Source: a virus (lineage: Duplodnaviria > Heunggongvirae > Uroviricota > Caudoviricetes). Taken from it: 17,306 nt of DNA. Made by a program: the position numbers and the translations under genes. Position 1 is the stretch's first letter; the number at the start of each line of letters is the position of its first letter. The notes beneath the pieces are model-generated. The model saw nothing but the letters and a program-made list of their open reading frames with translations, was not told where the DNA came from and did no database searches. The stretch lies in the IMG/VR virus record IMGVR_UViG_3300019888_000209; one strand, given 5' to 3'. Of this stretch, positions 1,114 to 14,472 are shown in pieces.

Positions 1114-1253
1114 CGCACAAGACCCCTCTTCTTCACTCGCGGCTTCAACGGGCTTTGCATCTTCAGTAGCGCGTTAAAAACCGTGTCGCCGCCGGCATAA
1201 GCTTTCGCTTCGTCCGGACCAAGCATACGCGGCCATGCCATTATCGAGATCAT
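1056..1253 (-). CDS. Excisionase-like small DNA-binding protein (65 aa)
   Basis: WPRMLGPDEAKAYAG...VRYDRTEIDAALDRW matches the pattern of Xis/AlpA-like HTH proteins. Start reassigned to ATG 1253, which overlaps the upstream stop (ATGA, 1250-1253). Adjacent to int. Confidence 0.7.
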   Translation of the reverse strand: MISIMAWPRMLGPDEAKAYAGGDTVFNALLKMQSPLKPRVKKRGLVRYDRTEIDAALDRWKGFDA

Positions 1254-1450
1254 AAAGTGAATGCCGTGGCGTCGCCGAAGCAGTCTAGAGGCGCGGGAAA
1301 CCAAAAGTTCGTGAACACCATCACTTCGCCAGGGCGCCAATCTAGTCGATCCGACGTCAGATAGACGCTTCCCGATTTGATTTCCGCAGCGTCGCCGTTC
1401 GTGGCTACGAGCTTGAAGTCTTTTATGCAGCGGCGCTCGTAAGTTTTCAT
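1250..1450 (-). CDS. Hypothetical phage protein (66 aa)
   Basis: ATGA overlaps at both ends (1447-1450 and 1250-1253) place it in a coupled operon. Confidence 0.7.
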   Translation of the reverse strand: MKTYERRCIKDFKLVATNGDAAEIKSGSVYLTSDRLDWRPGEVMVFTNFWFPAPLDCFGDATAFTL

Positions 1451-2265
1451 GCGGCGACCGGTTCTTTTGCCTTTCCTAGATGTTCACCGAAATGTTCAAT
1501 GATCCGCCCTGGAATTTTACCCAGGCGCGGGTTATCGCGGTTAGCTATTACGTATTCGTAAACCTTTTCTATGTCTTCGCGCGGGACGCCGCGCACGACA
1601 TTTAGCGCGTTGATCATCAATTGTTCGTTTTGCGTGTATTCCGAGCTTTTGCGCAGCGGTTTGCCGCAGGCCCTATCGATCATCATGATCAGCGCCACCG
1701 CTTTTTTTGTTTCATCAGGAGTCGCCTGCACGTCCAGCGGCAACGCGAACTGCTTACCGCGGCCCTTAATCACATCCACCTGATGCGCGGCTTCGACTTC
1801 GATCTCCTTTGCGGTGCGCCTGGCGTTGCGCGCGATCGCGCCTTTTTGCTGCATCGTTTTGTGATGCGGAGAGAGGTGTGAGTTGAATTGCCAAAAATTA
1901 TTAAGGACTAGGCCCTCCGTTCCGAATCCGTCCATCCCGCGTCTCTCCAAACGGAGCACGCCAGCGGCCAGCGCGTTGCCAAGTAATTCACCGGGTTTCC
2001 CAGTCCAACCACAGAAATCTTCGATAATGAAGGTTAGTTCGCACTCGTTCCACACGATCATCGTCGCTTCCGGTAGCTCGCCTTCAGCCCTTGCCGGCAA
2101 GTCACGCAATTCGCGGTAATCGACTCCGGTAGTGGCCCAATCGACCCACATGCGAAAGAGGTACGCGAGAGCTTTGTCGGCATCGCCGATTGCGCGACAG
2201 AACCGGCGCGCGTCTTCACGCCGTTCGAAATCTATCGGGAAATGGAGCGCAGGCGTCAGGGCCAT
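1447..2265 (-). CDS. Hypothetical protein with an N-terminal domain resembling phage replisome-organiser/replication-initiator proteins (272 aa)
   Basis: Long ORF coupled to its neighbours. LFRMWVDWA...IEDFCGWTGKPGELLGNALAAGVL...LNNFWQFN resembles the N-terminal winged-helix region of phage initiator proteins. Function is inferred. Confidence 0.55.
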   Translation of the reverse strand: MALTPALHFPIDFERREDARRFCRAIGDADKALAYLFRMWVDWATTGVDYRELRDLPARAEGELPEATMIVWNECELTFIIEDFCGWTGKPGELLGNALAAGVLRLERRGMDGFGTEGLVLNNFWQFNSHLSPHHKTMQQKGAIARNARRTAKEIEVEAAHQVDVIKGRGKQFALPLDVQATPDETKKAVALIMMIDRACGKPLRKSSEYTQNEQLMINALNVVRGVPREDIEKVYEYVIANRDNPRLGKIPGRIIEHFGEHLGKAKEPVAA

Positions 2266-2462
2266 ATATTTCCTAGATAATCCACGCGGACACCCAGCTT
2301 GCCGAGCGTGCCAGAGGCGAGGTCACCTGCCGGTTTGTGCAGGGAGACGACGACGCGCCGCGACCTACAGATTGGGCACAACGGCCTGGCGATCGACTCG
2401 TCGATCGCCGCCAACGCCACGGAAAAGATGTGATCGCATTCCAGGAGGGCAAATAAGTTCAT
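2256..2462 (-). CDS. Small Zn-ribbon-like protein (68 aa)
   Basis: LECDHIF...LCPICRS provides Cys/His ligands. TGATG overlap with the upstream gene. Confidence 0.6.
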   Translation of the reverse strand: MNLFALLECDHIFSVALAAIDESIARPLCPICRSRRVVVSLHKPAGDLASGTLGKLGVRVDYLGNIWP

Positions 2463-2665
2463 CAGTATGATTTCGACACTTGTGTCGTAAATGGAATGCC
2501 GTCGCCCGTTACCGCTTGGGCGCGCCGGCCGGCGCCGAGCAATTCGGCGGCCATAGCTTCGGCATCCGTTTTGTTCTCGGCCGTGACCGTAAGCCGCGCG
2601 ATGATTGGAATTTCGATATGATAAACCCGCTCTTTCGTTTCCGCCGAGCCTGCTAGATCAATCAT
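2462..2665 (-). CDS. Hypothetical phage protein (67 aa)
   Basis: Start reassigned to ATG 2665 (ATGA overlap with the stop at 2662-2664). YHIEIPIIARLTVTAENKTDAEAMAAE is a beta-beta-alpha pattern common in small phage proteins. Confidence 0.6.
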   Translation of the reverse strand: MIDLAGSAETKERVYHIEIPIIARLTVTAENKTDAEAMAAELLGAGRRAQAVTGDGIPFTTQVSKSY

Positions 2666-2877
2666 TTCGCCGCGGCTTCGTTGACGATTTCTAGCCATTG
2701 GCTCGATGCCACGCGAATTGCCGGATCGGTGGAAAGCTTCCGCAGGTCGATCACGTGCTTGAGATGTCTTCGTATGGCCTCGAACGCCGATCGGTCCCTG
2801 GCTTCGCCGAATGTCTCAGGCTTGGCCGCCGTGGCGGGTTTTTGTTTCGTCGGTGCGTCGGCGGCTTCGAGTCCCAT
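2662..2877 (-). CDS. Hypothetical protein, first gene of the leftward early operon (71 aa)
   Basis: Start reassigned to ATG 2877 (MGLEAA...). The longer ORF in the track runs through an AT-rich control-like region. Confidence 0.55.
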   Translation of the reverse strand: MGLEAADAPTKQKPATAAKPETFGEARDRSAFEAIRRHLKHVIDLRKLSTDPAIRVASSQWLEIVNEAAAK

Positions 2878-2996
2878 TTTTGTAAGTTTTCTAAATTTGG
2901 AAGAACAGTTCCACATGAAACATATTTCGGTGCCACTCGTCAAATATTTTTAATTTGCTTTTTTAGGAAATCGCCGACCGTCCAACATTCCAAATT
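2878..2996. promoter_or_regulatory. AT-rich divergent control region between the early operon and the repressor
   Basis: Divergent gene starts; visibly AT-rich. TTGACG on the minus strand (2943-2938) with only a weak -10. Inverted repeats: TGGAA-N6-TTCCA (2898-2913), GAAA-N4-TTTC (2917-2928) and AATTTGGAA (2894-2902)/TTCCAAATT (2988-2996). Confidence 0.55.
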
Positions 2997-3485
2997 ATGG
3001 CGTTCCTCGGGAACTATATCGCCAGCGTTATCGCGGCTGAGCGTAAGGCTGGAAAAGACACCACGGCGGCTTCGATGGCCGCACGTATGGGCATTCGCCA
3101 CTCTATGATGTCGCGGTTTCTCAACGACCCGAAGCCGCGCGGCGTGCATCACGAAACGCTGGAAAGAATGTGCCGCGGCATCAGCGACGATCCAATCGTA
3201 CGTGCCGGTCTGCGCATCGCGTATCTCAAAGATCAAATCGGCACCGGACGCGACGCGACCCTGGTGCGCATCGGGCTCGATCGCGAGCCGCGCACGAGCG
3301 AGAGAGATGTCGGCGCGGACGCTTACGCCGCGTTTGCGCAGGTGGCCGAGCGTGTCGGACTGGACGCACAAACTGTAGCCGCTCTTGCGAAAATCATCGA
3401 GGCATCCGCATACTCGATACGCTTTCGCCGATGCGTCCGCGATCTGGCCGATATCGCGCGACAGGACATCCTGCCGCACCGCTAA
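2997..3485 (+). CDS. XRE/Cro-CI family HTH transcriptional regulator, probable repressor (162 aa)
   Basis: TAASMAARMGIRHSMMSRFLN...HHETLERMC is an XRE HTH pattern. Divergent from the early operon. No S24 peptidase domain recognised. Confidence 0.8.
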   Translation: MAFLGNYIASVIAAERKAGKDTTAASMAARMGIRHSMMSRFLNDPKPRGVHHETLERMCRGISDDPIVRAGLRIAYLKDQIGTGRDATLVRIGLDREPRTSERDVGADAYAAFAQVAERVGLDAQTVAALAKIIEASAYSIRFRRCVRDLADIARQDILPHR

Positions 3486-3487
3486 AT

Positions 3488-4228
3488 TTAGCGCCGCGCC
3501 GCGTAGATCACACCGAACGGAGCGCGTCTCGCTGGCGACGCCCTGGGTCGCGCCGGCTCGACACCATGCTTCGCTATCAGGTAAGGGCGCTCTCGCTGGG
3601 TAAGGTTGCCCTGGACTCTCGACGCGCTCCCATTCCAGTAACGCACCGCAACCAACGGCTCCCGGATGAATTCAGGCGCGCCATATTTCCGGTGCAACAG
3701 CCAGTAATAGTCGCAGTCAAGCCGTGTGCGCAATTGCGTATCGAAGTGAAACTCGTTCCGGCGCGTTGCCATTACCGATGGCATGCCAATGGTGTTATCG
3801 CCGAACAAAATATCATCGCTCCAAGACGGATGATGCGTCCTTCGTAATTGTCCTCGCTCATCCATGCTCGTGTAGCTGGCAACCACCCAATGCGCCCGGC
3901 CCAGGGCTTTCTCGAATCGGCGCAAGGCATACGGACTATAAAGCAGATCGTCCTGATACATTATCTTGATCAGATCCGATTCAGCGCGAGCGATCGCGTT
4001 GTTCGAGTTATTGGAAATCCCGAACGTTTCGTTATTCCGAATGTATCGCAGTTTTAACCGATCAAGGTAAGACGCGCAAAGCTGTTGAATCGCGTTATCA
4101 CGCGAGTTATCGCTCACCACCACTTCGAATTCGGCTTCGCATTGTGACACCAATGAATCGAGTAGCGCCGCGAGATACTTCGCGCCGAATCCGGCTTGTT
4201 CATAGGTGGGGATACAGACGGAAATCAT
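3488..4228 (-). CDS. Glycosyltransferase family 2 (GT-A fold)
   Basis: ISVCIPTYEQ, EVVVSDNS, IRNNETFGISNNSNNAI and IMYQDDLL are typical GT2 motifs. Confidence 0.92.
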   Translation of the reverse strand: MISVCIPTYEQAGFGAKYLAALLDSLVSQCEAEFEVVVSDNSRDNAIQQLCASYLDRLKLRYIRNNETFGISNNSNNAIARAESDLIKIMYQDDLLYSPYALRRFEKALGRAHWVVASYTSMDERGQLRRTHHPSWSDDILFGDNTIGMPSVMATRRNEFHFDTQLRTRLDCDYYWLLHRKYGAPEFIREPLVAVRYWNGSASRVQGNLTQRERPYLIAKHGVEPARPRASPARRAPFGVIYAARR

Positions 4229-4247
4229 TTATCCCGTGAAAGTTTTT

Positions 4248-4319
4248 AATCTGGAAGCCAGGAATCTACGAACCCTCTTACCCTCTTTTCTTTATTCCTG
4301 GTTTCGTGGTTTCCAGATT
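4248..4319. repeat. Imperfect inverted repeat with triple-unit arms (CCAGGAA/CCACGAA type)
   Basis: Left arm 4248-4273 AATCTGGAAGCCAGGAATCTACGAAC. Right arm 4294-4319, reverse complement AATCTGGAAACCACGAAACCAGGAAT. 20/26 match, 8-bp period, 20-nt pyrimidine-rich loop. Confidence 0.9.
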
Positions 4320-4343
4320 TATTCCGTTTCATGATCCGCGCGG

Positions 4344-4943
4344 TTAAATTCTGATAACTCCCAGGCCATAGCTTCCAGTCCTGTTTTCCCACTTCAAGCC
4401 TGTCTCGGCGCAGAACGCTTCCAGCGCCTTTGCCACCATGAAGCTTTCATAGCCTTCGGGATAGCCAGGCAACGCCGGCAATTCCGTATCGTGACAACAC
4501 GCGATCCCGCCGGGATTAACGCGCGGAACATACACGCGCAGTTCGGCCATGGTTTGCTCGTAAAAATGCGTGGTATCGATAAAAAGCATGTCGATCTTGT
4601 CCGGCTGCAGGCGCGCAACCTCCGGATCGAGATCGTCGCCGATGGTCAGACCCCAAATAGGGCTCACAAACCACCACTCAGGCACGCGCGGTTTCTCGAT
4701 ATCCACAGACCACAGATTGCCGCCAGACCGTTCTACCCCAGCCAGCAGCGCCGCGGTAGAAATACCCGATCGCACGCCCAGCTCGAGCACGCTCTTACTT
4801 TTCGCCGCGTGCTCATACAAAAACGGCAGATGCTCCTGGATGTCCGACCACGCAGCCAGCCGCTTTTCGTATTCGGACTGGAAAGAACCGAGAACCACGG
4901 ATGACACGGATGAGACGGATGTTGAATCAAAAGGCGGCTTCAT
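4344..4943 (-). CDS. Class I SAM-dependent methyltransferase (Methyltransf_24-like)
   Basis: VLELGVRSGIST (motif I) and IDMLFIDTTHFYE...VNPGGIACCHDT. Candidate RBS AGGAAG at 4956-4951. Confidence 0.9.
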   Translation of the reverse strand: MKPPFDSTSVSSVSSVVLGSFQSEYEKRLAAWSDIQEHLPFLYEHAAKSKSVLELGVRSGISTAALLAGVERSGGNLWSVDIEKPRVPEWWFVSPIWGLTIGDDLDPEVARLQPDKIDMLFIDTTHFYEQTMAELRVYVPRVNPGGIACCHDTELPALPGYPEGYESFMVAKALEAFCAETGLKWENRTGSYGLGVIRI

Positions 4944-4984
4944 TTTCTTTCTTCCTATCCGTGTTATTCGTGTAATCCGTGGTT
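4893..4984. repeat. Imperfect inverted repeat with triple 9-bp-unit arms (CACGGAT type)
   Basis: Arms 4893-4920 (AACCACGGATGACACGGATGAGACGGAT) and 4957-4984 (reverse complement AACCACGGATTACACGAATAACACGGAT). 24/28 match, 36-nt loop. Confidence 0.92.
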
Positions 4985-4992
4985 ATTCTTTT

Positions 4993-5655
4993 TCATTGCA
5001 CCTTCAGGTGACGATGCATTTTGTAGGTCGGATTATCGTAAAAATCGCCCCACACCATCTCCCTGATTTCAATGCCGAACTGGCGCGCCAGAAAAGGGAA
5101 TGAGTTCTGATCGAATGAGGACCACAGCAGGCACGCGTTCCACCAAGCATCGAAGAAACCGTTCATTTGAGCGTTGATCGGCCGGGCAAACAATCCACAC
5201 CACCAGAGCCCGAAGTCCGCCGGATGCCCGTGCTTCTTGTAAAAGTCGGCTTCGATCCGCATCACTTCGGGCGAATAGCGCGCCGCAAGATATTTGTCGC
5301 CGCTGGCGATTCCATCAACGACGAACGCGGCTTCCTCGTAGATGCAATTCCGGAACGGATGCCGAGCCACGGCGATATCAAATTTGCCGGCGCCAATAAT
5401 CTCCTCGACGAACGAAGGCGCCTTGATCTCCACGTTGGCGTCGATCCATACAACGTGTGTGTAGTGAGCAGGCAGAACCCTGTGCGCCTGGAGCTTGAAG
5501 TATTTGCTCTTCATCCGGGCATCGAGCTGATTAAACGGAAACGGGCAATTTTTCTCGCTGATCGCGAACGAATCGCACGACTCCGACTTCCACGGGAAGC
5601 GACGCGCCTCGTCGATTCCGCCAAATGAAGCTGTCAAAACGGCTATTTTTCCCAT
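4993..5655 (-). CDS. DUF616-like (TOD1/MUCI70 family) putative glycosyltransferase
   Basis: IAVLTASFGGID, KSKYFKLQAHRVL, VVWIDANV, ARHPFRNCIYEEA and AWW...FDQNSF follow the DUF616 motif order. Confidence 0.75.
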   Translation of the reverse strand: MGKIAVLTASFGGIDEARRFPWKSESCDSFAISEKNCPFPFNQLDARMKSKYFKLQAHRVLPAHYTHVVWIDANVEIKAPSFVEEIIGAGKFDIAVARHPFRNCIYEEAAFVVDGIASGDKYLAARYSPEVMRIEADFYKKHGHPADFGLWWCGLFARPINAQMNGFFDAWWNACLLWSSFDQNSFPFLARQFGIEIREMVWGDFYDNPTYKMHRHLKVQ

Positions 5656-5663
5656 TGAGATTT

Positions 5664-5704
5664 AATCTGGACAAGAGGGTTCATGGCTTCCTGGTTTCCA
5701 GATT
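5664..5704. repeat. Reduced member of the CCAGGAA-type inverted repeat family
   Basis: One full triple-unit arm, 5680-5704 (reverse complement AATCTGGAAACCAGGAAGCCATGAA), and a single-unit partner AATCTGGA (5664-5671), giving an 8-bp perfect terminal stem. Confidence 0.85.
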
Positions 5705-6489
5705 CATTTCTCCCACTTCGATTTGTCCGGGAATTGCTTTTCCAGCCAGGTCTTGAAGCCGCCGTTAACCAGTGCGCCATCGCTGTACGAAAAAAGAACG
5801 CGCCCCCTGATCTGGTCCTCGAAAACCCCATCATGGAAGAACCGGATCTTGCAGTCCTGCATGAACGGCCCCGGCGCCGGCAGAAGATTGTTCGCATAGA
5901 CGGAGTGAATCACGAAACCATGCCCGTCCGCGCGGCTGCGCTCCCACCACGGAGCCAGCGCCATATAATCCTTACGCCGATAAACGATCGGAAAATGAAC
6001 GTCGTAATCGAGCGCCGGTTTACCTGCCGCCATCAAGGCCGACGCGGTGGCCCGCAACGAATCACGATAAACCGTCGTCGCCGCAGAATTCGTGGCCGAA
6101 TTGAACAGCGGCCCCTGCTGAAAATAATCGAGAGCCCTGACATCCATCGGCGCGACGAGAACATAATCGTCATCAAAGACGGCTACCTCATCTGCGATGT
6201 CCGTGTTTGCGAAAGCCCAAAGAATCTTCCAAGCAATCCGCGCATCCCTATTTGAGCTAATCTCAGGCAGTCTAACAAGAGCCGATGATCCGTTAAGCCC
6301 GTGAGATATGTCCGCCTTGCGCCCGAAACTCGTTCCCGTGCTTATCTCATGGGCTAAAAATCCCGGATCTTCGCCTACAACAAAGACGCGATCATAGCCA
6401 GTGGCAAACCGATCGATCGATCTCAGGCAATAGCGCAGTTCATTATTCTGCCATCCGGTCTCAGTTCCTAATGGAATCAAAATATCCAT
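5704..6489 (-). CDS. Stealth-like (CR2) putative hexose-1-phosphate transferase
   Basis: ELRYCLRSID (6441-6412), RVFVVGEDPGFL and AVFDDDYVL (6177-6163) match the Stealth CR2 pattern ELRYSLRS...P.WL...F.Y.NDD. A later HFPIVY resembles CR3. Confidence 0.72.
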   Translation of the reverse strand: MDILIPLGTETGWQNNELRYCLRSIDRFATGYDRVFVVGEDPGFLAHEISTGTSFGRKADISHGLNGSSALVRLPEISSNRDARIAWKILWAFANTDIADEVAVFDDDYVLVAPMDVRALDYFQQGPLFNSATNSAATTVYRDSLRATASALMAAGKPALDYDVHFPIVYRRKDYMALAPWWERSRADGHGFVIHSVYANNLLPAPGPFMQDCKIRFFHDGVFEDQIRGRVLFSYSDGALVNGGFKTWLEKQFPDKSKWEK

Positions 6490-6498
6490 CGGAATTTA

Positions 6499-6582
6499 GC
6501 CACGGATTTACACGGATGAACACGGATCCAGATTCGGAATCATGAGTCTCACAATCTTGTGAACTTCGTGAACTTCGTGGTG
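6499..6582. repeat. Chimeric triple-unit inverted repeat (CACGGAT arm facing a CACGAAG arm)
   Basis: 6499-6527 GCCACGGATTTACACGGATGAACACGGAT; 6556-6582 CTTGTGAACTTCGTGAACTTCGTGGTG. Confidence 0.85.
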
Positions 6583-6591
6583 GAAATTCAC

Positions 6592-6936
6592 TTACTCCGA
6601 TGGAAGCGAGAACGCTCCGGTAGGCGGCGTCACCACAAAAGTAAACGTATAAATACGTTTCTGAGTACCGTCCGTTTGCGCGATCGTTTGCTGCTTAATC
6701 ACCATCTTAGCCGTTCTGTTTGCCGACTGCGCCTGCCACGCCACGTTCAATGCCTCACAGAAGGCAAAGACCACGTCCCGGATATCGCCGGTCGTCGCAT
6801 TAGCCTGCGCGTTCGTGAGCTGCTCCAGCAGCTTATTCGTAGATGCGTCATTCGTGTTGAACGTGATCAGTTTATTCGTGTCATCGACGGCGTATCCGGC
6901 GCCGAGCCACGTTGAAGGTTTAAGATCTGCCGCCAT
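6592..6936 (-). CDS. Hypothetical phage protein (114 aa), possibly tail-associated
   Basis: Clean ORF with plausible globular composition, in the same operon downstream of the tail-like genes. Function not recognised. Confidence 0.7.
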   Translation of the reverse strand: MAADLKPSTWLGAGYAVDDTNKLITFNTNDASTNKLLEQLTNAQANATTGDIRDVVFAFCEALNVAWQAQSANRTAKMVIKQQTIAQTDGTQKRIYTFTFVVTPPTGAFSLPSE

Positions 6937-6961
6937 CGCTTGCTTTGTCTTTCATAATTAT

Positions 6962-8041
6962 TCAGCCTTTGCAAGCTTTTTCGCGCGTCATCTGCCCGTC
7001 GTTCGCTTCCGCGAACTTCTCGCCGTCCGCCTGTTGGTACCACGGCCGCGGCTCGATGCGCAAGTGACCGACGCATTCCGAGTCCTTCGATTCGTGATAT
7101 GCCTGGCAGAGAATGAATTTGCCTTTTCGTTTGGGATCACGAATCACATGGTCGCAGGGCGAATGCGGAATGACATTGATCCGCAGGCTGGCGCGGTACC
7201 AACGTTTCCAGACCACGTACAGATCTTCGGTGCCGCTGCCATCATAACCGTCGAACTGCGCCAGTGAAAGAGCGCGCTTGTTCATCAGCGTGCATCCGAA
7301 CCCGCACCAATCGCTTGGAACAACTGCGCCTATGCCGATTTCTGGATACGCTGCATGCATCCAACCCCGGCGCCGGAAGCCTTTGGAGTTGCAGAAGAAG
7401 ACGTTACCAATCGGCTTACATTGCTGGACCGCTTTCGACAATTCCTGGTATTGCTGCTTCCATTTTGCGTCAGGTTGACCCTTTAATTTCTTCAGGCGCG
7501 CCTGATGTTGATCGATTTTCTTTTTTAAATCCTCCGGAATCTCGCGTTCATCATCGTAGAAATCTGGAAGGATCGGTCGCTCCGGAATACCGCGCCCGCC
7601 GAGGAACGCGCCGCCACCCTGACTAGGATAAGGACAAGTCGAAACCGAATAAAAGCCGTCATCAAACTCCAGCATTTGTTTCATTACCCTCAGAGCATTC
7701 GGCTGTGGTAACACGTCACTATCAAGGCTCCAGCAGAGATCGGCCTGTAGCTGACGTGCGCGGTCAAAGGCGATCGATCTCATCCGGGCGATGATCAACT
7801 GAGCCGCATTTTTATAGTTCGGCAGGCCATCTTCATATTTGCCAGTGAAAAGCTCTACTGAGCTTTCGGCAGGTAGAACCGATTCGTAAAACTTTCTGGC
7901 CTTCTGTATCTCAGGTGAATTGTCGCCGACTAGAATTACCACAGCCCTGGGCTCACGCTCGATACACGCGACAATCTTACGCGCCTGCGCGATAAGTGCA
8001 TACGCATAAGACCGCGTCGAACAAATGGTAACAGCGATCAT
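6962..8041 (-). CDS. GT-A fold glycosyltransferase (GT2/Anp1-like)
   Basis: DxD motif (WSLDSDVL), SDWCGFGCTL and GTEDL, plus a C-terminal PCDH. ATGA overlap with the upstream gene. Confidence 0.75.
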   Translation of the reverse strand: MIAVTICSTRSYAYALIAQARKIVACIEREPRAVVILVGDNSPEIQKARKFYESVLPAESSVELFTGKYEDGLPNYKNAAQLIIARMRSIAFDRARQLQADLCWSLDSDVLPQPNALRVMKQMLEFDDGFYSVSTCPYPSQGGGAFLGGRGIPERPILPDFYDDEREIPEDLKKKIDQHQARLKKLKGQPDAKWKQQYQELSKAVQQCKPIGNVFFCNSKGFRRRGWMHAAYPEIGIGAVVPSDWCGFGCTLMNKRALSLAQFDGYDGSGTEDLYVVWKRWYRASLRINVIPHSPCDHVIRDPKRKGKFILCQAYHESKDSECVGHLRIEPRPWYQQADGEKFAEANDGQMTREKACKG

Positions 8042-10239
8042 ATCGCCACCCAGGTACCCCCTCCAGTATGGGCATGAACGACGAAAGCGTCACAAACTAA
8101 ATTACCGCCTATCACAGAAAACTGTTTGATGGAACGGTGTAGCATCAGTTTATCCGTAGACAGCGCAGTAGTAGTTCCGTTTCCATAATCCGTGGTTCCG
8201 GACGTGGTCGCATCCCATGTTTGCCATATGCCGGAAACGCAAAGTGTTTGCATGTTTGAGTCGGCCGTAAACGCGCGTGGCCTGCCTCCAACCACGCTCT
8301 CAAAATAGCTGGTCACTGAAGAAGCAAGCCCACCGCCGCTGGTAATCTGTGGAACTGTCGTCCCGGCGCTCATAATGGAGTACGTAAAACTGGACGTCTC
8401 CGTGCTATCGGACGCAATTGCATGCAGCCATGTAACTGATATGATCGGGTTAACAGGGCTGCTATTCCATTCTATCTGCCATGTTGTCGGCTCGTTGGTC
8501 GAGGTTACGCCCCTGTAAGTAAACGAACTCGTCCCAGTGCCGTCCGTCGCAGACGTGCCGCCGTTGTAAACGCATTGATATGGAACGCTGACGCTGCTGC
8601 CAGTTCCCGCGAACGCACCTAAAAATAGAAAACTAGGGAACGGAATAGATGCCGGAGCGCCACCGCCGCTTGCGCTCAGACCTAAATAAACGGGATCAGT
8701 CGCAGAAACAGACGGTTGGATCTGGAACCCTTGAAACGCTGGAACGAAAGTTAACAATGAAGCCGCCGCTTGCTGGAGGGAAAAGAGCCCTGGTAAACCA
8801 AACGTCCTCGTAGAGGTAAATCCGTTTACCGTGTTGTTGTGTATCGTATGATCATTGAAAGCTGTTCCTGATCCAACAGCACTACTAAAACTTCCCGAAG
8901 CAGCAAAGCCTATACCAGTATCACTAATAGCTTTTGTTTCACTTGCGGTTGTTGCGATAAATGAATCCGTTGAAAAGAAGCTCGATGTCCCACGGTCTGA
9001 TCCAGTCCATGTTATGAGTTTACCGGTGGTAAAGGAGCCAAGTTTAGGGCTCGAAGACGTTGTGGCTCCAAATGCACCGAACGTAGAAACACTTGTGCCC
9101 ACGGACGGGAGCGAGGAATTTACTGTGTGCGTTCCCACGAAAGAAGAGTACGTGTAGGTCTTGGAAGCCGATGACATGGGTAGTAATCCAACTGCATAAC
9201 TGGAGTAAGTCGTGATCCAACGTGTTAAGTCCAAGTCAGTTGATGCCGTACTCAGAGAAGTCGCATATTCGAATGATGCCGAGAAGCTCGATGTTGCAGC
9301 TGAGGTCGAGCCACTGGCAACAACTGGGTACACAACTACTATTGAACTCGTTCCGAGAGGATACAATGTTACTTCTCCGGTGGCACTTTCGAATAAATCC
9401 GAGAACTCATAACTTGACCACAGGAATTCGCCCGCATCGGTCCCAGGAGCAAATGTAAATAGTATGTCATTACGAACGGCGTCGAATTCTGGCACGAGCA
9501 CGGTTCGAAGAGCATAGGATTCCCCCAAGCCACGAAAGGTGGATGTGGACAACACGGCCACAGTATACGTTTCTGACGAGTCTGTAAATATTGTTGAAGT
9601 TATATTGTCCGAAACAATGACTGTTGTCGGAATGGTTGAATCCGTGTCTGTCGAATTCGTGGTCGTGTGGGTTCCGGCATAAAACGTATGCGTACCCGTA
9701 GAAGTTGATGTTGAAGATCCGAACAACGTCGATGTTATAGCCAAGGTCGTGTCTGAATGATAAGTGGGTGAGACAATAGATCCGGAAAACGAGCCCGTAT
9801 TAGAAGTGAACCCCGAGGTGCCTGGGCTACTAGAATATGCTGCGTAGAGAGTATTCCCACCACTTACTGTACCAGCCGTCCAATTAACAACAGTCTCTGA
9901 GGACAGACTTTGGATTGTCGAGCCATAAGAGGTGGCCGTTCCGGTACCGCCTCCGCCCTCCGTAAATGAACTTCCGTAATGGGTTGACCCGTTTTCATTT
10001 AGAACAGCCCAAGCATTTTGGTTTCCATTAAACCAAGCATGATCGTTTCTGCTAAAGTTATTAGACACAAAGGAGCTGGAATAAAAAGACAAACCTTGTG
10101 CCGATTCCATGTAATTCCCAGATGCATTATAGGTTCCGGTTCCACCGATCTCTACATCAGTAGTGTGGCCTTCGTCCGAACCCGTGCTAGAATGACCAGC
10201 GTAGTTGCTATAAATATAACCCTGAACACAGGCAATCAT
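8038..10239 (-). CDS. Ser/Thr/Gly-rich 733-aa protein, putative tail fibre/receptor-binding or virion surface protein
   Basis: Long ORF directly after the baseplate-hub-like gene. Very rich in Ser/Thr/Gly with few Lys/Arg and no signal peptide. The fibre role is inferred from position. Confidence 0.6.
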   Translation of the reverse strand: MIACVQGYIYSNYAGHSSTGSDEGHTTDVEIGGTGTYNASGNYMESAQGLSFYSSSFVSNNFSRNDHAWFNGNQNAWAVLNENGSTHYGSSFTEGGGGTGTATSYGSTIQSLSSETVVNWTAGTVSGGNTLYAAYSSSPGTSGFTSNTGSFSGSIVSPTYHSDTTLAITSTLFGSSTSTSTGTHTFYAGTHTTTNSTDTDSTIPTTVIVSDNITSTIFTDSSETYTVAVLSTSTFRGLGESYALRTVLVPEFDAVRNDILFTFAPGTDAGEFLWSSYEFSDLFESATGEVTLYPLGTSSIVVVYPVVASGSTSAATSSFSASFEYATSLSTASTDLDLTRWITTYSSYAVGLLPMSSASKTYTYSSFVGTHTVNSSLPSVGTSVSTFGAFGATTSSSPKLGSFTTGKLITWTGSDRGTSSFFSTDSFIATTASETKAISDTGIGFAASGSFSSAVGSGTAFNDHTIHNNTVNGFTSTRTFGLPGLFSLQQAAASLLTFVPAFQGFQIQPSVSATDPVYLGLSASGGGAPASIPFPSFLFLGAFAGTGSSVSVPYQCVYNGGTSATDGTGTSSFTYRGVTSTNEPTTWQIEWNSSPVNPIISVTWLHAIASDSTETSSFTYSIMSAGTTVPQITSGGGLASSVTSYFESVVGGRPRAFTADSNMQTLCVSGIWQTWDATTSGTTDYGNGTTTALSTDKLMLHRSIKQFSVIGGNLVCDAFVVHAHTGGGTWVAI

Positions 10240-10241
10240 GG

Positions 10242-12944
10242 TTACAAAGACGCGATTTCCCAGGTGTAGTATGTGTCGTAATATGGTTCCCCGGGGACAA
10301 GCGGTGAGCGTAGTGCTTGAACACCTGCCAGCGTGGTCGCTTCCAGAACGTTCATGATTAACTGGAAAGGAATTGTATCAACAATAACGCCTAGCAAAAG
10401 AGAAACGTTTTCAGGGGCCACGTTAAGATCGTAATCAATTGGATCAGGCGGTACGTCACTATTCCCGTCGATAACAGCATTCGTAAGCGACACCCCGTCA
10501 CTTGTGCAATCCAGAGTCACATAATAAGTGCCAGTTGCAGCGATAGCCCAATCGCTAAACATATTCGATGGAATAATCTGGTTGATCGTTCCCGGCGCCA
10601 CTTTCACTCGATAGTCTGGTGCTTCCGATGTGCCAAGGTTCACTACCGTGATTTCCCACGGAAACGCTCTCTCTGCTGCACCGCCGAGCTGCACCATCGC
10701 GAGAACGGTTTGACTGCCAGGATAACTCTGGCTCACCACGCGGCCTAACTGCATCGCGCCGCCTACCTTCGCTGTCTGCCCTGAGCCCTTGTCGATGCCA
10801 ATGCTGTCATTGGACTTGAACGGACCCTTCACCCGCACAGGCACGATGCCTTGCGTGGCGCAATTGACCAGGCTCGTCGATTGATCAGCAATAACAATAC
10901 CAGCGAAGTGTTCGCCGGTCGGACCAGGGTGACCATCCGCGCCGAGAAAGATAGGTTGCCCGGCCAGCCAGATATCCGACGAATAAATCTTCGCCACCGA
11001 ACAGTCAGGCGCGCCCACCGGTTTTTCCATAAAATGCGCCAGTGAGCCATATACAGGTTCCAGCGGCGACCGCTTCAGTTCCTTCGACACCTTGGCGATC
11101 AGATCTAGCTCTTTCGATTCGTCTTTTAATTTACGCTGCCCCGGGAACAAATCCTTGGCGCGCTGCTTACGCTCCAGGTCGCGTTCGGCTTCAAAGTTAC
11201 TTTGTGAACGTTCCTTGCTATACTCGACCCGTTCAGTAATCCCTTGGTCGAATGTTAAGCGCACAGTGACGCGGTCAATGGCGCCTGTTAGCGCAGTGCC
11301 ACTGGCGCCGTTCCGAGTGAAACCACCAGCTACGTAGAATTCCTCCTGCGCGGTAAGCGAATTAACGATTAATGTCGCTTTTTGATCGGCGGTATAAAAA
11401 TCGGCGTAAACAATCTCCGTTCCGTCCGCCAGGACGTGTTCGCACAGGCCAGGAACGTAATGCGATCCATGGCGAGCGCCGTCGCCGAATAGCTTCTGGT
11501 ACCGATCTGCGTCCCATACCAGGGCCGCGCGGACCGGCGCATCTTCAATGGTCGCATCTGCATTTGGGACCGCGATCGCTTTTAGCGAGTCAGGAGCGTC
11601 GGTGCTGGCGTTAGGGAAAATAACAAGATCGGTAGAAACGAACACTGCATCCTGAAAAATAATGGTCTTGTTACGCACATCCAGGTTGAACCTGTTGTTA
11701 GCGGTGAACTCAGCGGCCTCGCGATCCAATTCTGCCTGGGTAAGCACCCGCTGCTTCGTTGGATCAACTAGCCCGAGTGGTTGGCCCTTGACTATCAGGA
11801 ACACTTTTGCATCCGGATAGAGTTGGGACGGGTCTTCAGTCATTGCGCCGCCGAGATCGTAATTGATCGCGCATAATAGACCTTCAATGAGGTCTAGCGA
11901 ATCGCGCGGGAACGCGCCTACTTCAGTGTCCAGGATGTAATCGAGTGGCACCCTGTAAGCCTTGAAAACAATGTCATGAAGATAAGTCCAAACCGGTATC
12001 TCCATGCGTCCCACTTCGCCCCACATTCCATAGTCCGCGTAGCCAGCCCCCCATGCTGTCACTAACTCGCGCACAGTGAAGGTGCGCATTTTAGAAGCCA
12101 GCTCAGCCGATTGAGTAAAATCGTTCGGATCAAGCCCAAGGATGCCGGAAAGGTCCGCCTGCCAATCCGCCTCAAGCCAGAAATCCTCGTAGTTGGCATT
12201 CCAACCTGGCTCCAGATCAACCTCAAGATCCTGATAACGGTTCTTGTCACCTACCACAGTAATTTTGGTATCGTTCGCAGACACGGCTTCGCCGTCAGAG
12301 ATATCGCTCGTGCTTGCCGGATCATAAGCCGGAATGTCGCCGCCGCCCTTACGCGCCCACAATAACGTGCTATCTCCTACCAAGGTAAATAACAAGCCTT
12401 GCGCATCCGAGATTTCCTGTAGGACGCTGCCGAGCTTCTTACCGGTCATCGCGTCGATCTCGTGAATTTCCAGTTCCTGCGCCTCGTAGAAGCTGCCCGT
12501 CCATGAATTCACTACGGTCGGCGCGTCCAGGCAGTACTGAATTATCTGATGCGCCGTTAACGGATCATTAGTATAAGTCTTTAACTGGTGCTCCCAGTTA
12601 TCCGGCAAGATATGCATGTACCGTTTCTGCCGATCGATTCCGGGCGTGAGCGGATTGTGTTCGCGCACTTCCACTCTGTTAAATAAGCCAAATACTACGT
12701 CCCACATCAGCTTGACGCGCATGTCCACGAATGAGATCCGGGTATGCGTTCCGTCCTGCGTGTCGTCCGTAAACTGAGTTAGAACACCGTAGTACGAATC
12801 AGCGCCGAGCGTCAGTATGTAATCGCCGCCCACCGTCAGGCCACTCGCGCCAACAGCAGTGATACTCGCCGCGCCAGGGGAAAGCCCCCAGGCGCGCGTA
12901 AACTCCATATCGGCTATAACAGCGCCACCTATTGAGTACGGCAC
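10242..12944 (-). CDS. Putative tail-tip/baseplate hub protein (900 aa) with additional C-terminal domains
   Basis: N-terminal beta-rich region followed by GKKLGSVLQEISDAQGLLFTL...LLWARKG, reminiscent of gp27/late-control-D-like hub proteins. GTG start immediately follows an in-frame TAA. Confidence 0.55.
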   Translation of the reverse strand: MPYSIGGAVIADMEFTRAWGLSPGAASITAVGASGLTVGGDYILTLGADSYYGVLTQFTDDTQDGTHTRISFVDMRVKLMWDVVFGLFNRVEVREHNPLTPGIDRQKRYMHILPDNWEHQLKTYTNDPLTAHQIIQYCLDAPTVVNSWTGSFYEAQELEIHEIDAMTGKKLGSVLQEISDAQGLLFTLVGDSTLLWARKGGGDIPAYDPASTSDISDGEAVSANDTKITVVGDKNRYQDLEVDLEPGWNANYEDFWLEADWQADLSGILGLDPNDFTQSAELASKMRTFTVRELVTAWGAGYADYGMWGEVGRMEIPVWTYLHDIVFKAYRVPLDYILDTEVGAFPRDSLDLIEGLLCAINYDLGGAMTEDPSQLYPDAKVFLIVKGQPLGLVDPTKQRVLTQAELDREAAEFTANNRFNLDVRNKTIIFQDAVFVSTDLVIFPNASTDAPDSLKAIAVPNADATIEDAPVRAALVWDADRYQKLFGDGARHGSHYVPGLCEHVLADGTEIVYADFYTADQKATLIVNSLTAQEEFYVAGGFTRNGASGTALTGAIDRVTVRLTFDQGITERVEYSKERSQSNFEAERDLERKQRAKDLFPGQRKLKDESKELDLIAKVSKELKRSPLEPVYGSLAHFMEKPVGAPDCSVAKIYSSDIWLAGQPIFLGADGHPGPTGEHFAGIVIADQSTSLVNCATQGIVPVRVKGPFKSNDSIGIDKGSGQTAKVGGAMQLGRVVSQSYPGSQTVLAMVQLGGAAERAFPWEITVVNLGTSEAPDYRVKVAPGTINQIIPSNMFSDWAIAATGTYYVTLDCTSDGVSLTNAVIDGNSDVPPDPIDYDLNVAPENVSLLLGVIVDTIPFQLIMNVLEATTLAGVQALRSPLVPGEPYYDTYYTWEIASL

Positions 12945-12960
12945 TTACTTAGAAAAATTA

Positions 12961-13095
12961 GCCACAGATAAAAAAGAGTCGGGGAATCTGGAAGCCAGGA
13001 ACCCTGTTTCCCTGAAAAGAAAATTCCTGGTTTCGTGGTTTCCAGATAACAAATGCCTTTTCCGAATCCGTGTTTCATCCGTGTTAATCCGTGGC
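12961..13095. repeat. Nested inverted repeats: CACGGAT-type outer pair enclosing a CCAGGAA-type inner pair
   Basis: Outer: GCCACAGAT (12961-12969) and ATCCGTGTTTCATCCGTGTTAATCCGTGGC (13066-13095). Inner: AATCTGGAAGCCAGGAA (12985-13001) and ATTCCTGGTTTCGTGGTTTCCAGAT (13023-13047). Confidence 0.92.
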
Positions 13096-13740
13096 CTGTT
13101 TGGGTACAGCTACCAGCGCAACCGGACCGTCTCGCTTCGATGCGATTAACTCCACAAAATCTACACCCATCAGATCAACGTCGTTTCGGCTTGGCTCGAT
13201 ATTCGTTACCTTCACTCCAAGGCCAGGTCGTAACAGAAAATCGAAAGGACGATCGATTTGAGCAGGCGGCCCGGAAGCCAGAGCTTCCATTTCTGTTTCG
13301 ACTTGTTGCCCAGCTCCAACCTCGATCTCTTCCCGAAGCTTGTAGGAACAACCCATCCCGTCCACGACTGCGTGCATCGTCATTCCTTTAAGAAAGTGCA
13401 CCGCTTTCTTCTCGGATGAGATCACAAACCTGCACAACGATCGTACGAACTTCGCGGCAAGCGCGCGTTCCCATGTTTCGCCGGCGCTGATATCGGCTTG
13501 CACCAGAGCGCCAGGTGCATGCGACTGAACGTTCAGGCTGAGCCACGCTCGTCTTGATTTCCTGATCGACTGCCACTCCTCCCACTGGCCCGTGTTCTTG
13601 TCGCCAAACCGTAATCGCACTTCATAAAGAGCGGGCTCGCCCGCCGTAGCCTCGGGCGAAGGCGGGTCCCATTGCAGCCAGACGTGCGTCCCGTCCCACG
13701 CTCCAACGATGCGCGCATTTAACATAGGTATGGCAGACAT
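13084..13740 (-). CDS. Putative virion protein: FN3/Ig-like N-terminus plus baseplate-J-like beta segment (218 aa)
   Basis: VWLQWDPP...ALYEVRLR is an FN3-like pattern. YKLREEIEVGAGQQVETEMEALASG...GVKVTNIEP resembles the barrel of baseplate J-like proteins. Confidence 0.5.
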   Translation of the reverse strand: MSAIPMLNARIVGAWDGTHVWLQWDPPSPEATAGEPALYEVRLRFGDKNTGQWEEWQSIRKSRRAWLSLNVQSHAPGALVQADISAGETWERALAAKFVRSLCRFVISSEKKAVHFLKGMTMHAVVDGMGCSYKLREEIEVGAGQQVETEMEALASGPPAQIDRPFDFLLRPGLGVKVTNIEPSRNDVDLMGVDFVELIASKRDGPVALVAVPKQATD

Positions 13741-13769
13741 TTTCCGGTCTGCCAGCGGAGGGAGCTGGA

Positions 13770-14111
13770 TTAACTCGCCGTTGATGGTGCCGTGGTTGCA
13801 GCAGCCTGAACTGCTGGCGGAGTCGCAGCCGACACTGTTGCCGGAAGCGAACTCGCGCTTTGATTAGGTGCTGGTGCCACACTCGCGACAGCCTGCACGT
13901 CTGCGGGCGTAGGCGGGACAACCGCCGCGATCTGATTGACGGCCGAATTGATCTGCGCCACATCAGCATCCGTGAGTTGAACGGATGTCTTCAGTTGCGC
14001 CTGGAGATCGGCTATCTGGCCTTTCAACGTCGCAATCTGAGCCACGTTATCGCTGTCGGTATGTACCAACGCGACAAACGCTGCCACCAATTGAATGATT
14101 AGGTTTCTCAT
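13770..14111 (-). CDS. Hypothetical protein (113 aa): hydrophobic N-terminus, short coiled coil, Pro/Ala/Thr/Ser-rich tail
   Basis: Start reassigned to ATG 14111 because of a strong RBS (AAAGGAG) just upstream. First gene of the leftward operon. Confidence 0.7.
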   Translation of the reverse strand: MRNLIIQLVAAFVALVHTDSDNVAQIATLKGQIADLQAQLKTSVQLTDADVAQINSAVNQIAAVVPPTPADVQAVASVAPAPNQSASSLPATVSAATPPAVQAAATTAPSTAS

Positions 14112-14210
14112 TTTGTGCTCCTTTCGTTTTTTTGGTTTCTTTGTTTTCATTACCGTAAGACACATCGCTATCGCATCGCTGCTTGTCTTTCAATGAAAAT
14201 CCGTTTTCGA

Positions 14211-14246
14211 TTGACAAAATTAAAGCAAATCGGATAGCTTTTGCTT
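14211..14246 (+). promoter_or_regulatory. Putative sigma70 promoter with an overlapping operator-like inverted repeat
   Basis: Perfect TTGACA (14211-14216), 18-bp spacer, TAGCTT (14235-14240). AAGCAAA (14223-14229) and TTTGCTT (14240-14246) form an inverted repeat across the -10. Confidence 0.55.
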
Positions 14247-14256
14247 CCGTCGCCCA

Positions 14257-14472
14257 ATGCCAAGCCAGGCCATCAACGGAGCAAACTATCTATCAGCGCC
14301 GCAGATCGCGCGCGCACTCGGGCGCAATCCCGTGAGCATTTATCGCGTGATCAAACGCAAACGGATTACAGCCGCTATCGAGCTTAACGGCTTTAAGTTC
14401 TACTCGTGCGCCGTAAAAGCGAAGATCGAGAAGTCGATGCGCCGCAGAAACGGTCACAAGAACGGAGATTGA
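14257..14472 (+). CDS. HTH DNA-binding protein (HTH_17/MerR-like, 71 aa)
   Basis: YLSAPQIARALGRNPVSIYRVIKRKRI is an HTH pattern. Lies directly upstream of the primase-helicase. Confidence 0.8.
   Translation: MPSQAINGANYLSAPQIARALGRNPVSIYRVIKRKRITAAIELNGFKFYSCAVKAKIEKSMRRRNGHKNGD

Follow-up and report, generated by a model that had tools for sequence, protein, structure and literature searches.

Tandem-unit hairpins at five late-operon junctions of a phage: probable gene-less copies of a cassette family of the Candidatus Udaeobacter lineage

Hairpins at the junctions of the late operon

The window, the whole 17,306-nt stretch of DNA analysed here, belongs to a 124.8-kb viral record (IMG/VR IMGVR_UViG_3300019888_000209; Caudoviricetes), of which about 31.6 kb was read. 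Its minus-strand late operon carries imperfect hairpins at five gene junctions, with arms made up of two or three tandem units of 8-11 nt in three flavours, CACGGAT, CACGAAG and CAGGAA. All five copies lie between the stop and start codons of co-directional genes; a four-gene glycan module has one at every internal junction and another at the junction that precedes it. A sequence-only reading had pointed to these sites, and all five were confirmed at their positions. The structural proteins of the phage gave no PHROGs or Pfam match, and neither tRNA nor rRNA genes were found in the window. The features discussed below are as follows.

3488-6489, minus strand: four-gene glycan module (Stealth-like, DUF616/TOD1, Methyltransf_24 and GT2)
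3488-4228, minus strand: GT2 gene of the module
4248-4319, no strand assigned: E1, CAGGAA-type gene-less hairpin at the methyltransferase/GT2 junction, loop orientation '+'
4320-4343, minus strand: degenerate units resembling CACGGAT (CGCGGAT, ACGGAAT) that immediately follow the stop codon of the methyltransferase, read from the sequence
4344-4943, minus strand: Methyltransf_24 gene of the module
4893-4992, minus strand: E2, CACGGAT-type gene-less hairpin between the DUF616 stop codon and the methyltransferase body
4993-5655, minus strand: DUF616/TOD1 gene of the module
4994-4996, minus strand: orphan ATG overlapping the DUF616 stop codon as ATGA, recognised by comparison with the related contig L312
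5664-5704, no strand assigned: E3, truncated CAGGAA-type hairpin at the Stealth-like/DUF616 junction
5704-6489, minus strand: Stealth-like gene of the module
6499-6582, no strand assigned: E4, chimeric hairpin at the 114-aa/Stealth-like junction
12961-13097, no strand assigned: E5, composite, with a CAGGAA-type hairpin sitting inside the loop of one of CACGGAT type

The arms of the window copies are 15-28 nt long and the loops 11-36 nt, with no GxxExxY gene or other ORF inside. Complementarity between arms reaches 86% over 28 nt in E2 (4893-4920 and 4957-4984), 80% over 25 nt in E1 (4248-4272 and 4295-4319), 84% over 19 nt in the inner hairpin of E5 (12986-13004 and 13029-13047) and 80% over 15 nt in E3 (5664-5678 and 5690-5704). 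The E2 loop, read on the minus strand, contains AGGAAG and then an ATG at 4943-4941. The idea that one arm has stop codons, and the other GTG, in every frame, as a 10-nt period would produce, was set aside; the period in E2 is 9 nt.

Three of the five copies are nested or chimeric. In E4, three CACGGAT units (6501-6527) are paired with two CTTCGTG units of the CACGAAG flavour, and the loop holds a CAGGAA-flavour fragment, GAATCTGG; E4 is a chimera of two flavours with a fragment of a third. In the outer hairpin of E5, three units (13066-13093) stand opposite a single degenerate unit (12963-12970), one arm having lost two of its units, and the CAGGAA-type hairpin at 12986-13047 lies between them. 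E3 is inverted with respect to E1, with 28 of 32 positions identical and the likeness reaching into the loop, and its first base is the final base of the Stealth-like stop codon (5706-5704). In these details, the chimerism of E4, the nesting and partial loss of E5 and the truncation and inversion of E3, the sequence-only reading is amended; as to the sites it stands. The degenerate units at 4320-4343 are, on a weak indication, probably the remnant of an older arm in which E1 is nested.

The window contains 15 copies of CACGGAT where 2.75 are expected; a count of 15 is reached in none of 200 shuffles, and the better-folding strand of each element has a z-score of -1.5 to -5.7 relative to shuffled sequences. 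Unit arrays are absent from the rest of the window, from the 5.6 kb beyond it and from 8.7 kb of host flank; the earlier claim that the early and replication genes lack them holds for the window, where no array lies outside the five junctions.

The position of the sites at junctions of one long co-directional operon raises the possibility of RNA elements selected by the phage; serving as RNase III sites or 3'-end stabilisers, they would divide the late transcript and set the amounts of tail proteins and glycan enzymes. The stems are long enough for RNase III, which cuts a homologous Coxiella stem in vitro (PMC4990558), and five sites in 9 kb is a density far above the host-family average of about 0.7 exact triple arrays per Mb, which might point to selection or to a local preference. 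Against this, the window copies occur in both orientations, and it is the plus strand, antisense to the late operon, that folds better as RNA at three of the five sites, the two strands being about equal at the others; the earlier remark that wobble pairing does not consistently favour the mRNA strand was roughly right. Three flavours for one supposed purpose would also be surplus. Rfam gave no gathering-level match over the window (at the E-value threshold, only a chance microRNA match with E = 0.7), and the hairpins lack terminator-like tails. A reading as Rho-independent terminators was dropped, none of the seven terminator-like sites in 3300-14400 coinciding with a hairpin.

A cassette family in the host lineage

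We place the host, a soil bacterium, in Candidatus Udaeobacter (Verrucomicrobiota), the flanking host PafA being 93-94% identical to that of Udaeobacter MAGs. The arm words of the window are at home in this lineage. Double CACGGAT units number 4-50 per genome in five host-lineage genomes, with none in the reversed control, and 144 of the 301 host-family genomes contain exact triple arrays, whose number ranges from 0 to 32 per genome, again with none in the control. The arrays overlap crude ORFs in 53% of cases, compared with 88% for random sites. CAGGAA-type hairpins with the arms seen in the window are also present in host-lineage genomes.

The sequence-only reading mentioned CACGGAT-type hairpins flanking GxxExxY and four-helix-bundle genes in PVC-group bacteria, and such arms do bracket GxxExxY genes in host-lineage genomes, with other flavours around the four-helix-bundle genes. 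One ORF, framed exactly by two triple arms, matches TIGR04256 (3.6e-37). In five host-lineage genomes, flanking inverted repeats exceed the 99th percentile of shuffles around 23 of 25 GxxExxY genes and 22 of 26 four-helix-bundle genes, the inverted arms standing at the start and the stop codon. All three flavours bracket GxxExxY genes: CACGGAT (L258, L260, L261, L266, L271, L279), CACGAAG (L250, L264) and CAGGAA (L278); the four-helix-bundle genes have unit words different from these.

The full cassette is ∼0.45-0.55 kb long. Its inverted arms, with two to four tandem units of 8-11 nt in each, form a stem of ∼25-30 bp around one small gene encoding either a GxxExxY PD-(D/E)XK nuclease or a four-helix-bundle protein of the 23S-rRNA-intervening-sequence family. 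The cassette exactly fills the gap that separates the stop codon of one gene from the start codon of the next gene in the same direction. The literature on GxxExxY, PF13366, TIGR04256 and the CACGGAT word yielded neither a description of the element nor a published definition; we use 'tandem-unit-armed hairpin cassettes around GxxExxY (TIGR04256) genes' as an operational family. Among solved structures there is no sequence match for the GxxExxY protein.

Loss of the inner gene leaves a hairpin. The orthologous uvrD/malQ junction holds a full cassette in seven species, a hairpin that retains the first and last codons of the gene in one, and a 10-nt scar in another. E2 likewise matches, at both of its ends, a full-length GxxExxY cassette from a host-lineage genome, and the aligned stretch takes in 7 nt inside the 3' arm. 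The gene-less copies have themselves been copied: the right arm of E1 is identical over 25 nt to the right arm of the inner hairpin of E5, the two sharing arms and the start of the loop, E3 is a truncated copy in inverted orientation, and the composite arrangement of E5 recurs in a host-lineage genome (L246 in G001).

Within each copy the two arms stay complementary to one another. Mismatches between the arms around 51 host genes, counted on a stringent alignment (a lenient one over-extended), comprise 28 sense-strand G.U pairs, 42 antisense-strand ones and 77 of other kinds, so the family as a whole has no sense-strand wobble bias, a further point against selected RNA elements.

Similar sequences reach other viruses. 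Triple CACGGAT arms are carried by 119 viral stretches, and the CACGGAT word is found in more than 119 unrelated ones, many copies consisting of one arm that lies shortly before a start codon. Neither a one-sequence search nor an iterated profile detected a GxxExxY gene in the 119 stretches, which suggests that spread among phages may not need a nearby gene, or may proceed by recombination. The exact 24-nt CAGGAA-type arm has no match in IMG/VR.

Single arms upstream of start codons, together with a unit spacing of 9-11 nt, would also suit arrays of binding sites at one-turn spacing for a phage repressor, a nucleoid protein or a CsrA-like protein, and ACACGGAUG has what we take to be a resemblance to the CsrA selection consensus. 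We regard such arrays as very unlikely. Three to many unrelated words are used alike, including words without GGA, and the complementarity kept in each copy is something that a one-sided array does not need; moreover, the arrays are gained and lost along with the gene that they enclose, and the word is spread over the unrelated viral stretches and nearly half of the host-family genomes noted above. The specific reading as CsrA sites was abandoned, the units being base-paired and the other flavours lacking GGA.

Compact junctions in related phages

Two other contexts preserve the glycan module in the same gene order. A 50.6-kb phage contig that encodes a DUF616 homologue (P0042, 55% identity) has Stealth, DUF616, Methyltransf_24 and GT2, and its DUF616/MT and MT/GT2 junctions are both -4 nt; the third glycan junction has a 133-nt gap whose sequence was not readable, so that the compact state is seen at the other two only. 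In L312, at 46-63% amino-acid identity, the Stealth/DUF616 and DUF616/MT junctions are ATGA overlaps, and the MT/GT2 junction has 28 nt with a solo two-unit ATCCGTG arm. The backbone relatives L121-L123 lack both the glycan module and the unit arrays. Their junctions equivalent to that of E5 measure -1 to +4 nt, compared with 139 nt in the window, and read TAGGCCATG, TAATG and TAGCATG. Single-protein searches with the 733-aa and 359-aa proteins gave no relatives, and the 900-aa protein was not found in the 301 host-family genomes.

Copies of three flavours thus stand at five junctions of a late operon that relatives keep compact, and we conclude that the window hairpins appear to be secondary insertions into junctions that were tight. 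Traces of insertion are seen in the neighbouring genes. The window methyltransferase aligns to Met1 of its relative only from residue 17, at the edge of E2, and the orphan ATG at 4994-4996, which now starts a dead frame of 22 codons, is the probable ancestral start of the methyltransferase. The 218-aa ORF now stops at a TAA (13086-13084) within the outer arm of E5. By this comparison, the insertions seem to have displaced the methyltransferase start codon and rewritten the end of the 218-aa gene.

These observations bear on the proposed functions. Related phages that have the same glycan genes in the same order, with overlapping stop and start codons and no hairpins, count against a built-in role and fulfil one part of the refutation that the sequence-only reading had itself set out; because the hairpins were probably inserted later into junctions that are tight in related phages, they would not be an operon control device. 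One insertion, moreover, severed a start codon. We therefore consider it unlikely that they are RNA elements selected by the phage, and the earlier suggestion of processing or binding sites that set stoichiometry does not stand as a selected function, given this damage, the two orientations and the better folding of the antisense strand. An incidental effect on the transcript is possible.

The relatives bear equally on the suggestion that the hairpins are recombination sites marking off exchangeable gene cassettes, as attC sites do in integrons. An imperfect hairpin of 40-100 nt flanks each glycan gene, a tyrosine recombinase is encoded in the element, and the module as a whole is missing from the backbone relatives. 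The recombinase, however, is an Xer-like integrase of generic type that scores well under all of the curated cut-offs, and is placed at the end of the element beside host genes; one of the hairpins separates two structural genes that are neighbours in every relative, and in host genomes the unit words are scattered around single small genes. Neither gene content nor gene order changes at the hairpins: the same four genes stand in the same order in both hairpin-free contexts, and there is no integron-type integrase. Recombination sites of this kind are extremely improbable.

The sequence-only interpretation is therefore partly supported. The one of its suggestions that is borne out is that of empty copies of a host hairpin-type mobile element in intergenic gaps, since the arm words are found in the host lineage, where they bracket GxxExxY genes, and relatives lack the hairpins. 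We judge it probable, at about 0.8, that the window hairpins are gene-less, MITE-like copies of a small palindromic cassette family of the Candidatus Udaeobacter lineage, inserted later into the operon; the family is apparently an undescribed form of selfish DNA. On the other side stand the high local density of the sites, the absence of a GxxExxY gene from the 119 viral stretches searched and of a copy from the 8.7 kb of host flank, and a comparison by eye of filled and empty junctions, which gave no consistent target-site duplication; at one host site a GGCTGA repeat runs into the end of the arm.

Proposed mobility and relation to known systems

The copies may be made or moved in trans by host-encoded proteins. 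The likeliest mover would be the GxxExxY nuclease, acting on DNA hairpins or cruciforms, a role suggested only by its co-location with the arms; the window encodes no GxxExxY nuclease gene. The occurrence of one arm design with two unrelated proteins argues against a simple 'its own transposase' model. The phage presumably tolerates the hairpins as passengers, since the elements either supply working stop and start codons or leave such codons in place. Transcribed stems of 15-28 bp could be substrates of RNase III, as homologous rRNA intervening sequences are, and cutting would segment the late mRNA as a side effect and not by design. More tentatively, and at somewhat less than even odds, the cassettes would form an undescribed mobile class, kin of the rRNA intervening sequences, that inserts between stop and start codons, is moved in trans by a GxxExxY nuclease recognising its own arms as DNA hairpins, and jumps from chromosome to prophage and so between hosts.

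On the preferred reading, that of gene-less cassette copies, two very common 'hypothetical' families, GxxExxY (TIGR04256) and the four-helix-bundle/23S intervening-sequence proteins (TIGR02436), would be cargo of one cassette design, gene-less copies of which litter operon junctions. The 30-year-old puzzle of the rRNA intervening sequences would gain a wider setting and a testable partner protein. The window serves as a natural experiment, with five filled junctions in a prophage operon and empty sites in relatives, and the comparison of the two reveals effects of insertion on neighbours, a displaced start codon and a rewritten C-terminus. The comparison also shows that elements of the cassette type get into phages, and phages could then take them from one host to another. 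Genome annotation benefits as well, since the hairpins account for spurious short ORFs and misplaced start calls at the junctions where they lie.

Among known systems, integron attC sites share with these elements imperfect hairpins of 40-140 nt between co-directional promoter-less genes, but here there is no integron integrase, there are no conserved core sites, and gene content is constant at the hairpins. As in MITEs, both ends of the full element and a few bases inside them persist in the gene-less copies (the uvrD/malQ site and E2), which have themselves multiplied; they differ in that no consistent target-site duplication or recognised transposase was found and in that the ends pair over their whole length.

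The closest known systems are the REP/RAYT repeats and the ORF-bearing 23S rRNA intervening sequences. Like REP/REPIN-RAYT elements, the cassettes are short imperfect palindromes dispersed mostly in intergenic DNA, clustered and nested, with many gene-less copies and a few that flank a small gene, and the arm sequence tracks the gene lineage. Unlike them, they have tandem unit arrays as arms in place of a single REP, their copy number is low, from a few to about 30 per genome, and the partner is not a Y1 transposase: in five host-lineage genomes, none of 10 Y1_Tnp loci adjoins a unit array, and a RAYT partner found no support.

The 23S rRNA intervening sequences, known from helix 45 in Coxiella burnetii and from Leptospira, have a terminal-inverted-repeat stem of ∼28 bp around one small ORF that encodes a four-helix-bundle protein of the S23p family (PF05635/TIGR02436); the Coxiella stem is cleaved by RNase III in vitro, and the sequences are sporadic in distribution and unexplained in origin and mobility (PMC4990558). 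The cassettes resemble them in their inverted-repeat stem around one small ORF, the arms of the window copies being 15-28 nt compared with 28 bp, in sparing the transcribed region in which they lie and in their sporadic occurrence, and in the host lineage it is the four-helix-bundle genes themselves that have such arms (the 22 of 26 above). The window copies differ in lying between protein-coding genes and not in helix 25 or 45 of 23S rRNA, and in holding no S23p/four-helix-bundle ORF, such ORFs being enclosed by other flavours in the host lineage. The arms are, in addition, built of tandem short units, and a second, unrelated family, the GxxExxY nuclease, shares the same design.

Hairpins in an integrated Udaeobacter element

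The window lies within a 124.8-kb metagenome contig on which its integrase directly adjoins host genes (Pup-proteasome system, GMP synthase), and it therefore represents an integrated element. The host PafA shares 93-94% identity with its counterpart in Candidatus Udaeobacter MAGs (Verrucomicrobiota), and window positions 1-5709 are matched at 100% identity by a contig from a different sample. SRR7026569 (L125) also contains the sequence of this prophage. At 11475-15078 of L124, the locus where the element meets the host, Mpa-like ATPase and PafA-like Pup ligase genes adjoin it, and the Udaeobacter lineage therefore possesses a Pup-proteasome system; no tRNA gene is found at this end of the element. 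From 3488 to 14165, every long gene is encoded on the minus strand.

Features of the window
Left end: tyrosine recombinase
3488-14165, minus strand, in order of transcription: genes for proteins of 131, 218, 900, 733, 359 and 114 aa, then four glycan enzymes
3488-6489, minus strand, in order of transcription: glycan module of Stealth-like, DUF616/TOD1, Methyltransf_24 and GT2 genes
Right side: HTH protein and primase-helicase
4248-4319: hairpin E1, methyltransferase/GT2 junction
4893-4992: hairpin E2, DUF616/methyltransferase junction
5664-5704: hairpin E3, Stealth-like/DUF616 junction
6499-6582: hairpin E4, 114-aa/Stealth-like junction
12961-13097: hairpin E5, 218-aa/900-aa junction

The backbone genes (integrase, HTH protein, primase-helicase, 218-aa and ~900-aa proteins and others) recur as a family on metagenome contigs of 14-17 kb. 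Neither Pfam nor PHROG has a match for the family's structural proteins, and the 900-aa protein is absent from the 301 host-family genomes searched. The backbone appears to be an uncharacterised lineage, either of small temperate elements or of phages, in soil Verrucomicrobiota.

An inverted-repeat search recovered the hairpins that the sequence-only reading had placed at these junctions, and their construction from short tandem units was confirmed by reading the sequence. CACGGAT occurs 15 times in the window, against 2.75 expected, and folding z-scores relative to shuffles, for the better strand of each element, range from -1.5 to -5.7. With an array detector, CACGGAT-type arrays were picked up at 4896-4920, 4957-4981, 6501-6527 and 13066-13093 and nowhere else in the window; clusters of CAGGAA-type words are confined to the three other sites. 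There are no unit arrays in the 5.6 kb past the window or in 8.7 kb of host flank. The hairpins are thus real, but at three sites their structure differs from that first described: E3 is a truncated copy, inverted with respect to E1; E4 combines two flavours (unit words) in its arms; and in E5 one hairpin sits inside the loop of another. The inner hairpin of E5 has the same orientation as E1 and shares its arms and loop start.

The CACGGAT arm of E4 (6499-6527) is a near-perfect inverted repeat of the outer arm of E5 (13066-13097), and the 6.5 kb between them hold the 900-, 733-, 359- and 114-aa genes; the inverted copies E1 and E3 similarly enclose the methyltransferase and DUF616 genes. Recombination within each pair could allow inversions. 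Inverted variants were not seen.

Equivalent junctions in related elements

Relatives of the 900-aa protein are encoded on 14-17 kb contigs, three of which (L121, L122 and L123) were read and carry neither unit arrays nor glycan genes. Their junctions between the 2xx-aa and 9xx-aa genes are TAGGCCATG, TAATG or TAGCATG; the corresponding window junction is 139 nt long and contains E5. The 218-aa ORF extends into the outer arm of E5, its TAA stop falling between two units. Alignment of the junction with the three relatives places the start of the 900-aa protein at a GTG codon (12944), giving an N-terminus MPYSIGG compared with MSYSxGG in the relatives. The public gene call for this large tail-like protein (888 aa, from 12908) begins 12 codons late.

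The glycan module can be compared with two relatives. A 50.6-kb phage contig (JGI 3300071300), with portal and S49 protease genes, has the four glycan families in conserved order; its DUF616/methyltransferase and methyltransferase/GT2 junctions are each a 4-nt overlap, and its Stealth/DUF616 gap is 133 nt, the gap DNA itself not being readable. In L312, a glycan-module relative with 46-63% amino-acid identity to the window, the gene order is identical, and ATGA overlaps are present at both the Stealth/DUF616 and DUF616/methyltransferase junctions. These overlaps agree with part of what the sequence-only reading had named as evidence against its proposal, namely that related phages carry the same glycan genes in the same order without the hairpins. 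The unchanged order in both relatives also excludes an integron-like role, in which the hairpins would bound exchangeable genes. The module is common, in the same order, to the window and a quite different 50.6-kb phage, and we conclude that the four genes transfer between phage backbones as one block.

The methyltransferase/GT2 junction of L312 is 28 nt long and contains a solo arm of two ATCCGTG units, its start lying within the stop codon. This arm resembles a half-decayed copy and occupies the junction that holds E1 in the window; this junction was thus struck independently by another flavour. The arm (1400-1425) lengthens the L312 methyltransferase by three residues (PSP).

In the window, the ATGA motif persists at the stops of the Stealth-like (AAATGA) and DUF616 (GCAATGA) genes, with a hairpin directly after each, and the ATG at 4996-4994 now heads a dead frame of 22 codons. 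Methyltransferase homology with L312 starts only at window residue 17 (Met1 of L312), at the edge of E2, so that the predicted start must now lie either at 4943 (ATG, E2 loop) or at 4898 (in-frame GTG, E2 arm).

Gene-bearing cassettes and gene-less copies in the host lineage

Triple CACGGAT arrays occur in more than 119 IMG/VR stretches, as hairpins and as single arms. The double unit is found 4-50 times in each of five Udaeobacter genomes, often clustered (reversed control, 0), and exact triple arrays are present in 144 of 301 host-family genomes (0-32 each; control, 0). This tally took in seven unpublished-flagged genomes (G177, G012, G248, G160, G214, G007 and G272), which support no claim beyond it. 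Array density is ~0.7 per Mb in the host family; the 17.3-kb window alone contains four arrays, two exact and two near-exact. Host-lineage genomes also contain CAGGAA-type hairpins with the window's arms, and the composite arrangement of E5 is found again in the host-lineage genome G001. On one contig of this genome (L236, 4060-4822; G001:C2), five near-identical CACGGAT hairpins, each with ~60-150 nt of flank, stand in tandem downstream of a large TPR gene, with GxxExxY genes 3-7 kb upstream.

Also in G001, an ORF that matches TIGR04256 (GxxExxY; 3.6e-37) lies between two triple arms separated by 400 nt. A CACGGAT-type GxxExxY protein is encoded, for example, at 4068-4463 of L238. The five Udaeobacter genomes have 2-13 matches each to GxxExxY and 2-11 to the four-helix-bundle family (TIGR02436), and in the flanks read, genes of both families lie nearly everywhere between arrays in inverted orientation, each made of three or four short units, which touch the start and stop codons of the enclosed genes. 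Flank repeats exceed the 99th percentile of shuffled flanks for 23 of 25 GxxExxY and 22 of 26 four-helix-bundle genes. This agrees with the sequence-only reading, which had placed CACGGAT-type hairpins beside such genes: the window's three flavours, CACGGAT, CACGAAG and CAGGAA, are each found around GxxExxY genes, and the four-helix-bundle genes share the arm design with other unit words. At one GxxExxY gene (L278) the CAGGAA flavour carries the same AATCTG head as in the window. The unit words are many and vary between copies while each copy's own arms stay complementary; this amounts to covariation at the family level. None of the 119 viral stretches contains a GxxExxY gene.

Loss of the gene from a cassette can be traced at the uvrD/malQ junction, compared across 30 genomes of the host genus. 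Seven have a full cassette; in G299 the same flanks surround a hairpin that retains the gene's first codons and last bases, G318 has only a 10-nt scar, and the remaining genomes have hairpins of other families. Across these loci (L313-L342) some palindromic element is present in nearly every species, of at least four kinds: CACGGAT/CACAGAT cassettes, GACGAAT-unit hairpins, a long palindrome starting GTCATTCCGAGCG, and the scar. The junction appears to act as a hot spot, or as a place where elements replace each other. In the window, a full cassette can be matched to E2 at both ends, 7 nt within the 3' arm being part of the alignment. As in full cassettes, the first features of the E2 loop are a ribosome-binding-like run and then an ATG. 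The gene-less copies derive from full cassettes.

We conclude that the window hairpins are gene-less copies of host-type cassettes, secondarily inserted into a compact phage operon. One of the explanations first offered, empty copies of a host element at gene gaps, is supported by the host-lineage cassettes with the window's flavours and by the compact junctions of the relatives.

DNA or RNA level, and comparison with known systems

The observations do not indicate a role for the hairpins in the phage, or any selection acting on the sense RNA. When both strands are folded as RNA, the one antisense to the operon does better at E1, E2 and E4, and the two are about equal at E3 and E5; CAGGAA-type copies are present in both orientations; and arm mismatches in 51 host cassettes comprise 28 sense-strand G.U, 42 antisense G.U and 77 others. 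The arm complementarity is what a DNA-level constraint or recent copying would give. The stems may be sites at which the transcript is cut.

Terminators and known RNA families were excluded, and no description of the arrays, or of a link to GxxExxY, was found in the literature. The logic is similar to that of REP/RAYT systems, from which the elements differ in their partner gene: unit arrays adjoin Y1 transposase genes at 0 of 10 loci, though the host genomes have such genes. The 23S rRNA intervening sequence of Coxiella, 428-444 nt long and of unknown origin, is a substrate of RNase III; its terminal repeats pair into a 28-bp stem that flanks an S23p ORF (PMC4990558). The host four-helix-bundle cassettes share the design of such intervening sequences, but lie outside rRNA.
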